Shown here piece after piece: positions 47,123-47,267 of a DNA stretch of 64,000 nt. How positions within the stretch are numbered: position 1 is the stretch's first letter; the number at the start of each line of letters is the position of its first letter. The notes under the pieces are model-generated. The model did no database searches and was not told the DNA's origin. It saw only the letters and a program-made list of their open reading frames with translations. A program made the position numbers and the translations under genes. Location of the stretch: contig JAZKAB010000009.1 in the NCBI GenBank assembly GCA_040389365.1, forward strand, positions 44,816 to 108,815. The letters run 5' to 3'. The stretch is from Patescibacteria group bacterium (lineage in GTDB: Bacteria; Patescibacteriota; Minisyncoccia; Phycocordibacterales; UBA9973).

Positions 47123-47267
47123 ATTTGCAAGTATTGCTTGCATATCTAAAAGAACCGGCCTATTATTAAGTCTCCTCCTGCTGCCTCGGTGGCAGGACGC
47201 GAAGCCGCAGCGAAAGTTGCGGCTTCTGCATTCTTAATAGGGGAGATGCAAGCAATACTTGCAAATC
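47123..47267. promoter_or_regulatory. large palindromic element: 23-25-nt inverted arms (atttgcaagtattgcttgcatatct / agatgcaagcaatacttgcaaat) flanking two internal hairpins
   Basis: The arms lie at 47123-47147 and 47245-47267. Internal hairpins are ctgcc-tcggt-ggcag and gaagccgca-gcgaaagt-tgcggcttc. The element sits in a divergent intergenic region before the Cro-like gene. Confidence 0.4.

Follow-up and report, generated by a model that had tools for sequence, protein, structure and literature searches.

Probable operator–promoter modules form the inverted arms of a structured element in a Patescibacteria prophage

The DNA analysed here (the window) is a 64-kb part of a 113-kb contig from a metagenome-assembled genome of the Patescibacteria, or candidate phyla radiation (NCBI; locus tags V4478_), in which a prophage of ~36 kb, with its genes nearly all on the + strand, lies between two host parts. 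Inside this prophage, an element of 145 nt consists of two inverted arms around a structured core. To its left, two small membrane-protein open reading frames (ORFs) annotated by NCBI run on the − strand (46685–47112; 78 or 72 amino acids (aa), and 62 aa). To its right, the + strand carries a 55-aa Zn-ribbon ORF with the pattern CPKC...C..C (47340–47507), the gene of a 53-aa Xre/Cro-type helix-turn-helix (HTH) protein (47511–47672) and, 10 nt downstream of the latter and co-oriented with it, the gene of a peptidase/peptidoglycan-binding lysin (47683–49143). An earlier note on this DNA had described the position as a divergent intergenic region next to a Cro-like gene, which is correct, and had read the element as repressor or Cro operator sites. 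The operator part of that idea is supported by our analysis, in the form of two back-to-back modules rather than one large operator: the arms are probably two copies of an operator–promoter module that belongs to a regulon of this prophage.

The left arm, ATTTGCAAGTATTGCTTGCATATCT, occupies 47123–47147, exactly where the earlier note had it, and the right arm, AGATGCAAGCAATACTTGCAAAT, lies at 47244–47266, one base to the left of the 47245–47267 given there. The arms are reverse complements of each other save for an indel of 2 nt. A repeat search returned them as 24-nt arms, 96% complementary and enclosing 96 nt, the longest pair in the window among pairs with nearby arms. When read outward, the 20-mer of the right arm, TGCAAGCAATACTTGCAAAT, is identical to the 20-mer of the left arm and is followed by a 16-nt spacer on each side. 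Each arm contains a 17-bp dyad (TGCAAGTATTGCTTGCA at 47126–47142 and TGCAAGCAATACTTGCA at 47247–47263) of the general form TGCAAGT-N3-ACTTGCA, the half-sites of which are one helical turn apart. In the arms this dyad is a near-palindrome, TGCAAGT-ATT-GCTTGCA, with 13 of 14 matches. A third copy (site 3), TGCAAGTAATACTTGCA at 51459–51475, is perfect (TGCAAGT-AAT-ACTTGCA, 14 of 14) and includes the 15-mer GCAAGTAATACTTGC, which is indeed found at 51460–51474 as previously reported.

A scan for the motif, proposed in the earlier note as a check, showed it to be rare, with three perfect copies per 64 kb, all in the prophage. The sequence GCAAGYAWTRCTTGC matches exactly three times in 64 kb, in the two arms and at 51460–51474; with up to two mismatches there are five matches against 0.83 expected, a number reached by none of 100 shuffles. 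When the 12 outer bases are fixed and the centre is left free, these three perfect sites compare with an expectation of ~0.004 (4^-12 per position), and the host parts of the window contain no perfect dyad. The half-site TACTTGCAC, said to occur at 49388, exists at 49390–49398 instead, as well as at 47095–47103 and within the third site, and its copy at 49390 is indistinguishable from chance. In IMG/VR, the degenerate 17-mer gave 62 single, chance-like matches, none of them with two sites. The pattern of dyad plus TATACT gave 33 loci, approximately the number expected by chance and none with an HTH or lysin homolog, and a DNA similarity search against 50,697 GenBank phages gave no match. A relation to LexA boxes was also considered; that of Patescibacteria is reportedly of the GAAC-N4-GTTC type, unlike the dyad. 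Palindromes of the form GTGCAAGTC(A/T)GACTTGCAC at 2111–2127 and 2893–2909 of a metagenome contig (L128) were considered as relatives of the dyad and set aside: they lie around an IS200/RAYT-like gene between grpE and dnaK and resemble repetitive extragenic palindromes (REP); their likeness to the dyad is most likely due to chance. They show that a dyad-type palindrome can also arise as a REP-like sequence.

The dyads coincide with predicted promoters, all of which are consensus predictions; a −10-like hexamer was accepted when it had A2 and T6, matched the consensus in at least four of six positions and lay 16–17 nt away. The promoter-proximal half-site, ACTTGCA plus one nucleotide, supplies the −35-like hexamer TTGCA+A/C/T of a predicted sigma-70-type promoter, and the −10-like hexamer follows 16–17 nt on. 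At the right arm this gives the predicted rightward promoter P_R (47259–47286, + strand), with −35 TTGCAA at 47259–47264 in the right dyad, a 16-nt spacer and −10 TATACT at 47281–47286. P_R faces the Zn-ribbon, HTH and lysin genes and was picked by an independent consensus scan as well. The third module (51459–51498, + strand) has −35 TTGCAC at 51471–51476, a 16-nt spacer and −10 TATACT at 51493–51498, and is directed at the right end of the prophage. The left arm is followed by −10-like hexamers in both directions. The candidate leftward promoter P_L (47103–47130, − strand) combines −35 TTGCAA at 47130–47125, a 16-nt spacer and −10 TATTGT at 47108–47103, 8 nt from the ATG at 47094. The candidate inward promoter P_C (47138–47166, + strand) uses the inner half of the left dyad, with −35 TTGCAT at 47138–47143, a 17-nt spacer and −10 TATTAT at 47161–47166, matching in five of six positions (local chance ~2% over two spacer lengths); its predicted start at ~47173 leads into the hairpins of the core. 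The consensus scan also returned a − strand promoter, TTAAGA-17-TATAAT at 47307–47279, which would transcribe the entire element leftwards.

Relatives were found through lysin homologs (43–52% identity, on phage-sized contigs), which gave eleven loci around eight homologs, or nine after two short duplicate contigs were left out. Only one of these nine, L093 (Logan DRR213774_2914, a 37.5-kb phage contig of which 13.5 kb was examined), encodes the HTH protein, 57% identical over 51 residues and directly upstream of the lysin; the recognition helix, GVSTQAVYxWKxGK, is unchanged between the two. Both the HTH and a perfect dyad are missing from the eight other distinct loci, and protein searches with the 53-aa HTH found the source contig alone. 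L093 also encodes a homolog of a 70-aa membrane protein that is located at 50944 in the window.

With the 12 bases fixed, the examined part of L093 contains perfect dyads at 2207 (site a), 2958 (site b) and 8224 (site e), one with a single mismatch at 7708 (site d) and one with two mismatches at 5375 (site c). Four sites lie within two mismatches of the full degenerate 17-mer, where 0.10 would be expected in 13.5 kb. Each of the five is followed after 16–17 nt, in one direction only, by a −10-like hexamer: TATAAT at site a, TACACT at b, TATAGT at c, TATACT at e and the weaker TACGTT (three of six matches) at d. Association with promoters in related elements, on which the earlier note had made its reading depend, is thus seen in a phage that encodes the HTH homolog. 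Over both phages, a −35 within the dyad and a −10 at 16–17 nt occur at seven of eight sites, judged by consensus only; at the right arm, site 3 and sites a, b, c and e, a hexamer with at least four of six matches is present in one direction only. Since −10-like hexamers of that quality occur at just 1.8–3.7% of positions in the background, the association between dyads and promoters is not a matter of chance.

Site c lies upstream of the HTH-containing operon and thereby mirrors the right arm. Site e lies directly upstream of a gene for a 50-aa membrane protein which is similar to window 15504–15668, the first gene inside the left end of the prophage (alignment score 72 against a shuffle maximum of 51; none of 500 shuffles reached 72). 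An alignment of the modules shows that the central 5 nt vary between sites while the half-sites are kept, and the sites are therefore regarded as a protein-binding dyad and not as a pairing element. At 7708–7845 of L093, site d (TTGCAT-17-TACGTT) is followed by ~100 nt without an ORF and then by a strong terminator (7812–7845); this unit may be an operator-controlled small RNA. The leaders past three dyad promoters also have a short motif in common, seen in AAGGGAATTGGTCAATT (L093 8264–8300), AAAGGAATTGGTCGAATT (L093 2997–3030) and AAGGAGGTTCGATAAA (window 51499–51520).

As judged from these comparisons, the dyad is most likely bound by the 53-aa Xre/Cro-type protein. This protein matches Pfam HTH_3 (E 1.5e-6) and a transcriptional regulator family of PHROG (6e-9), with weak matches to the DNA-binding domains of P22 C2 and the 434 repressor. 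The proteins common to the window and the examined L093 DNA are the HTH, the lysin, the 70-aa membrane protein and one early protein, which makes the HTH the sole DNA-binding candidate, and its gene lies downstream of a dyad promoter in both phages. Two distant HTH proteins, in L131 and L132, were found by an IMG/VR search with the helix motif. L131 has one perfect dyad, TGCAAGTAGCGCTTGCA, at 1880–1896, with TACAGT 17 nt further on, in an intergenic position (12 kb; ~7e-4 expected). In L132, a Zn-ribbon and an HTH (TTQAVYLWESGK) are fused in one ORF (~5860–6130), while the corresponding genes of the window are adjacent.

At the level of sequence, the operator reading is thus supported by the rarity of the dyad, by its geometry and by one informative relative. 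Several observations weigh against it. L093 is the only informative relative, with 13.5 of its 37.5 kb; the HTH gene of L131, 4 kb from the dyad, has a different palindrome upstream, TATCACTGCTATTGATA; and the HTH of L132 shares the helix STQAVYLW, yet there is no dyad within 12 kb. L131 and L132 are ambiguous, as they neither confirm nor refute the HTH as the dyad binder. The promoters were all predicted by consensus, in a phylum where little work on promoters has been done, and P_L is weak, with a −10 of four matches in six (~7% local chance) situated inside an NCBI ORF that starts at ATG 47112. The identity of the arms exceeds what an operator needs, because the reverse-complement match extends to the central 5 nt and the flanks (~4^-8 by chance). 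The 121 bp between the dyad centres correspond to ~11.5 helical turns, so that simple looping is not favoured. Finally, the operator model, like the earlier operator idea, leaves the 96-nt GC-rich core, with its better hairpins on the + strand, unaccounted for.

Some of these points bear on the identity of the binder. The dyad could be bound by another phage regulator or a host factor, or could be a class II activator site, in which case the 53-aa HTH would not be a repressor; we regard this as rather unlikely. Relative to the predicted start, the dyad is centred at about −38 to −41, the position of a class II activator, and a location just 10 nt upstream of a co-oriented lysin gene is odd for a maintenance repressor. 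Only a third of L093 is visible, which leaves room for further common regulators, and the perfect site of L131 has promoter geometry even though its HTH gene is preceded by another palindrome. Binding by the 53-aa protein is favoured by its being the sole DNA-binding candidate among the shared proteins and by the joint conservation of recognition helix and half-sites, and the confinement of perfect sites to the prophage part of the window also speaks against the alternative.

With the 53-aa protein as binder, a regulatory scheme can be proposed. A dimer of this protein, whose gene lies 250 nt to the right, would occupy the dyad and occlude (less likely activate) RNA polymerase at the −35. P_R would drive the Zn-ribbon/HTH/lysin operon, and the regulator would therefore control its own synthesis. 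The left module would face the two small membrane-protein genes, while P_C would read rightwards through both GC-rich hairpins and yield either a short RNA or the leader of the lysis operon. The distance of 8 nt between −10 and ATG at P_L is equal to that at L093 site a (TATAAT-8 nt-ATG 2256), and this spacing without a Shine–Dalgarno sequence in two putatively dyad-controlled units (47094–47108; L093 2242–2258) suggests that leaderless mRNAs may occur in this phage group.

The third module would read over the attachment site into the early genes after excision of the phage. Site 3 is predicted to be an early promoter because its ortholog, L093 site e, adjoins the homolog of the leftmost prophage gene. 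A 14-nt direct repeat, TAACGTCGCACAAT, at 15389–15402 and 51656–51669 (chance expectation ~0.13) is a candidate attachment core, for which the evidence is only suggestive. Integration thus appears to separate the predicted early promoter from the early genes, and such a cut-off would be a simple means of keeping a prophage silent.

The arrangement resembles the Cro/CI operators of lambda (OR/OL), P22 and 434 in its 17-bp dyad with half-sites one helical turn apart, in the presence of several copies that are confined to phage control regions and overlap core promoter hexamers, in its divergent promoters and in the placing of a small HTH gene under one of the controlled promoters, which is here a predicted one. 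In contrast to OR1-OR2-OR3 of lambda, the local sites number only two and stand inverted at a distance of 121 bp, rather than in a tandem triplet; no separate CI-like gene was recognised, and two membrane ORFs lie on the opposite side. The position of the regulator gene just upstream of the lysin, the Patescibacteria host and the reliance on predicted binding also differ from the lambda, P22 and 434 systems. A second comparison is offered by the Aca-type autorepressors of anti-CRISPR and accessory operons, in which a strong promoter with an inverted repeat over its −35/−10 region is followed by small genes and then by a small HTH gene, whose product represses the same promoter. The order of inverted repeat over a promoter (here a predicted one), small gene(s) and small HTH gene is the same, and a dyad in L093 precedes small accessory genes (Tis1_ImmP-like, HD_4). 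Unlike Aca systems, the Zn-ribbon ORF has no identified anti-defence function, and a dyad also fronts the predicted early-gene promoter, which points to a phage-wide regulon. Apart from its structured core, the element is a standard type of phage operator–promoter arrangement in a poorly studied host group. Gene regulation in Patescibacteria phages is, to our knowledge, almost unexplored, and the hosts are uncultured. The 17-bp dyad, the promoter consensus TTGCAa-16/17-TAtAcT and the candidate 53-aa protein together constitute a concrete system that can be tested in vitro without culture of the host.

The core is the only unusual part of the element. It is GC-rich between AT-rich flanks and contains the two stable hairpins that the earlier note had seen between the arms. 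Hairpin 1 (47176–47197, + strand) is UCCUGCUGC-CUCG-GUGGCAGGA with nine pairs, two of them G.U. Hairpin 2 (47199–47229, + strand) is GAAGCCGCAGC-GAAA-GUUGCGGCUUC plus two outer pairs (11+2), including one G.U; its loop, GAAA at 47212–47215 with a closing C-G pair, is of the GNRA type, as had been claimed. One unpaired base separates the hairpins, and 47172–47242 folds at −38.6 kcal/mol with a z of −5.3. The two hairpins differ, so that the core is not a mirror duplication, and they are longer on the + strand, where three G.U pairs replace what would be C.A mismatches on the − strand. Hairpin 2 is followed by a weak U-tract, UGCAUUCUUAAU, unlike the terminators of the window, which have clean T-runs, and a terminator scan flagged just a small sub-stem.

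Homologs of the core were not found. Rfam 15 gave two tRNAs only in the window, with the best local matches at E 0.3–9, far below the gathering threshold, and there is no second copy of the core within the window. A covariance model of the element matched only itself and nothing in 22 other loci, so that the covariation which the earlier note had proposed to look for in related phages, over the 47148–47244 fold, is lacking. The non-coding stretch of L093 in the same position (5138–5375) is GC-rich and moderately structured (z −3.3); its alignment with the core scores at or below shuffles. A 26-mer of the core had 0 matches in IMG/VR, and the double-arm pattern had 0 matches in 185,579 species genomes and 241 million metagenome records. 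A relaxed double-arm pattern gave 22 matches, all of which were rejected as unrelated tandem or REP-like repeats.

The leading idea for the core is a + strand RNA or leader made from P_C, with a processing hairpin in read-through RNA as the second. The former would be an sRNA (small RNA) of ~65 nt with two hairpins that starts at ~47173 and ends at hairpin 2, or a cis leader (attenuator or put/nut-like) of the Zn-ribbon/HTH/lysin operon. It complements the operator model and does not compete with it, and we hold it as a tentative possibility. The quality of P_C, the two-hairpin fold of 47172–47242, the longer + strand hairpins with a C-GAAA-G tetraloop and the GC-rich composition against AT-rich flanks all agree with it. 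The put RNAs of phage HK022, ~70 nt with two stem-loops, lie just downstream of an early promoter and act on gamma-proteobacterial RNA polymerase (PMC9378689). The core resembles them in size, in its two stem-loops and in its position directly downstream of a predicted operator-controlled promoter, but this likeness concerns shape alone: the sequences are unrelated, and the core has regular helices with tetraloops and no non-canonical features. A functional RNA is made less probable by the absence of a homolog, and hence of covariation, in Rfam, in the 22 other loci and at the same position of L093, by the weak U-tract after hairpin 2 and by a strand bias that amounts to three G.U pairs in a single sequence. 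It is quite unlikely that the core is a cis-acting RNA that gates the lysin by termination or antitermination (put-like or 6S-leader-like), with the dyads tying this gate to the global switch of the phage.

The folding of the element as a whole bears on another conceivable use of the arms. A 161-nt region folds at −76.3 kcal/mol on the + strand (z −9.1) and at −65.3 kcal/mol on the − strand (z −6.8), and for neither strand did any of 200 shuffles do as well; folded as DNA, the z is −9.0. The entire 145-nt element could therefore be imagined as one long hairpin in a read-through RNA, its stem of 21–24 bp serving as an RNase III site or as an insulator between the late transcript and the lysis operon, with arms that exist mainly for pairing. 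Complementarity between the arms is perfect and extends to the non-symmetric central bases and the flanks; this identity beyond the bases that a dimer would constrain argues for either a recent inverted duplication of the module or selection for pairing. Moreover, the + strand late operon ends at 46679, and a terminator scan gave no prediction from 46600 up to the element. We consider the long hairpin unlikely, because the same dyad occurs as single, unpaired promoter sites in the prophage and in L093, which indicates that pairing is not its primary role. L093 lacks the paired arrangement, the transcripts from the outward promoters would include neither arm, and neither strand shows a U-run after the whole element.

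A second branched hairpin is present in the same phage at 49672–49796, ~90 nt 3' of the integrase stop. It has arms ATGTCCTGCACTACGTTCTATAGGTTG and CAACCTACAGAACGTAAAGCAGGACAT, a long closing stem and three small hairpins, and folds at −60.6 kcal/mol (z −8.4, − strand); its arms lack the operator motif, and the structure is followed on the − strand by a U-run, UUUUUGUUU. Its possible roles are those of a giant terminator or of a sib-like retroregulator acting on the integrase gene. The phage thus builds such structures for other ends too, and RNA-level readings of the element therefore stay alive.

The outline of the element also recalls a miniature inverted-repeat mobile element. Correia-type elements of Neisseria measure ~150 nt, have terminal inverted repeats of ~25 nt with promoter hexamers in the ends and form a long RNA hairpin if transcribed. 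Here, too, inverted ends of 23–25 nt enclose a core of ~100 nt, with promoter hexamers and a long hairpin. G+C changes abruptly at 47120, the segment of both small membrane ORFs being ~30% G+C, and the inner flanks of the arms resemble a single duplicated segment with an 11-nt indel (CTTAATA..AGG..AGAT..TGCAAGC). A functionless element of this kind, or the recombination scar left by insertion of the AT-rich membrane-protein cassette, is nevertheless improbable: unlike Correia elements, the sequence is present in a single copy in the window, and neither the double-arm pattern nor the core 26-mer has matches in large collections. There is also no target-site duplication, as the flanks (...TTTTAT / ATTTGC and GCAAAT / CTGATA) contain no direct repeat, and the arms are a phage regulatory motif in common with L093 and not element-specific ends.

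In principle, identical inverted repeats around a −10 whose −35 lies in an arm could form an invertible switch, in which recombination between the arms flips the 96-bp core and moves the −10 TATTAT to the other arm, where it fires leftwards instead of rightwards. A tyrosine recombinase gene lies 2.6 kb away. This recombinase is, however, the integrase of the prophage (49885–50814, − strand), which has its own candidate attachment core, and 96 bp is very short for site-specific inversion, which renders such a switch very improbable. The suggestion in the earlier note of a replication origin or packaging (pac/cos) signal found little or no support. An AT-rich stretch does adjoin the structured, GC-rich palindrome, but there are no iterons or tandem repeats, the terminase gene (22062) and the early replication-type genes (15.5–21 kb) are far away, and the arm motif is accounted for by promoters; we judge this reading extremely improbable.

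Of the remaining prophage genes, one at 23520 encodes the portal and another, at 41511–46679 on the + strand, a 1722-aa polyvalent protein that has an ADP-ribosyltransferase (PARP/ART-like) domain. No close relative of the latter was found among 5.8 billion clustered proteins, a search which did find the source contig itself; the sole other match at E <= 1e-10 covers 8% of its length. IMG/VR scans for close relatives of this protein and of the lysin were empty. Family searches in Pfam and PHROG gave no match for the two small membrane ORFs to the left of the element, which resemble a moron-like cassette. Inside the prophage, at 51165–51235, a tRNA-Met (CAT) that scores a modest 51 bits lies between the gene of the 70-aa membrane protein and a bidirectional terminator (51242–51265), and the equivalent position of L093 holds a dyad promoter and ~100 nt of non-coding DNA. 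Another related phage contig, L087, contains a degenerate tRNA-like sequence (28.5 bits) and a 17-nt perfect inverted repeat around a T-arm-like GGTTCGAATCC...CCA; ARAGORN calls neither of the features, which lie at 7518–7612 and 7934–8102.

The host part on the left (1–14.7 kb) encodes a transketolase, an aldolase, a release factor and an S41 peptidase, and host-type genes resume beyond ~52 kb with an Eco47II-type restriction–modification pair and a P-type ATPase. In the host parts, the palindrome TTTATTGAC-NNN-GTCAATAAA occurs twice (14753–14773 and 55671–55688), in both cases upstream of a gene start, and is probably the operator of a host regulator. A 23-nt palindrome around a 5-nt centre, at 53545–53595, forms the most stable fold of the window for its G+C content. 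It lies between the Eco47II-type endonuclease gene and that of a C5-methylase with a fused MerR-type HTH, and is probably the control site of this restriction–modification system.

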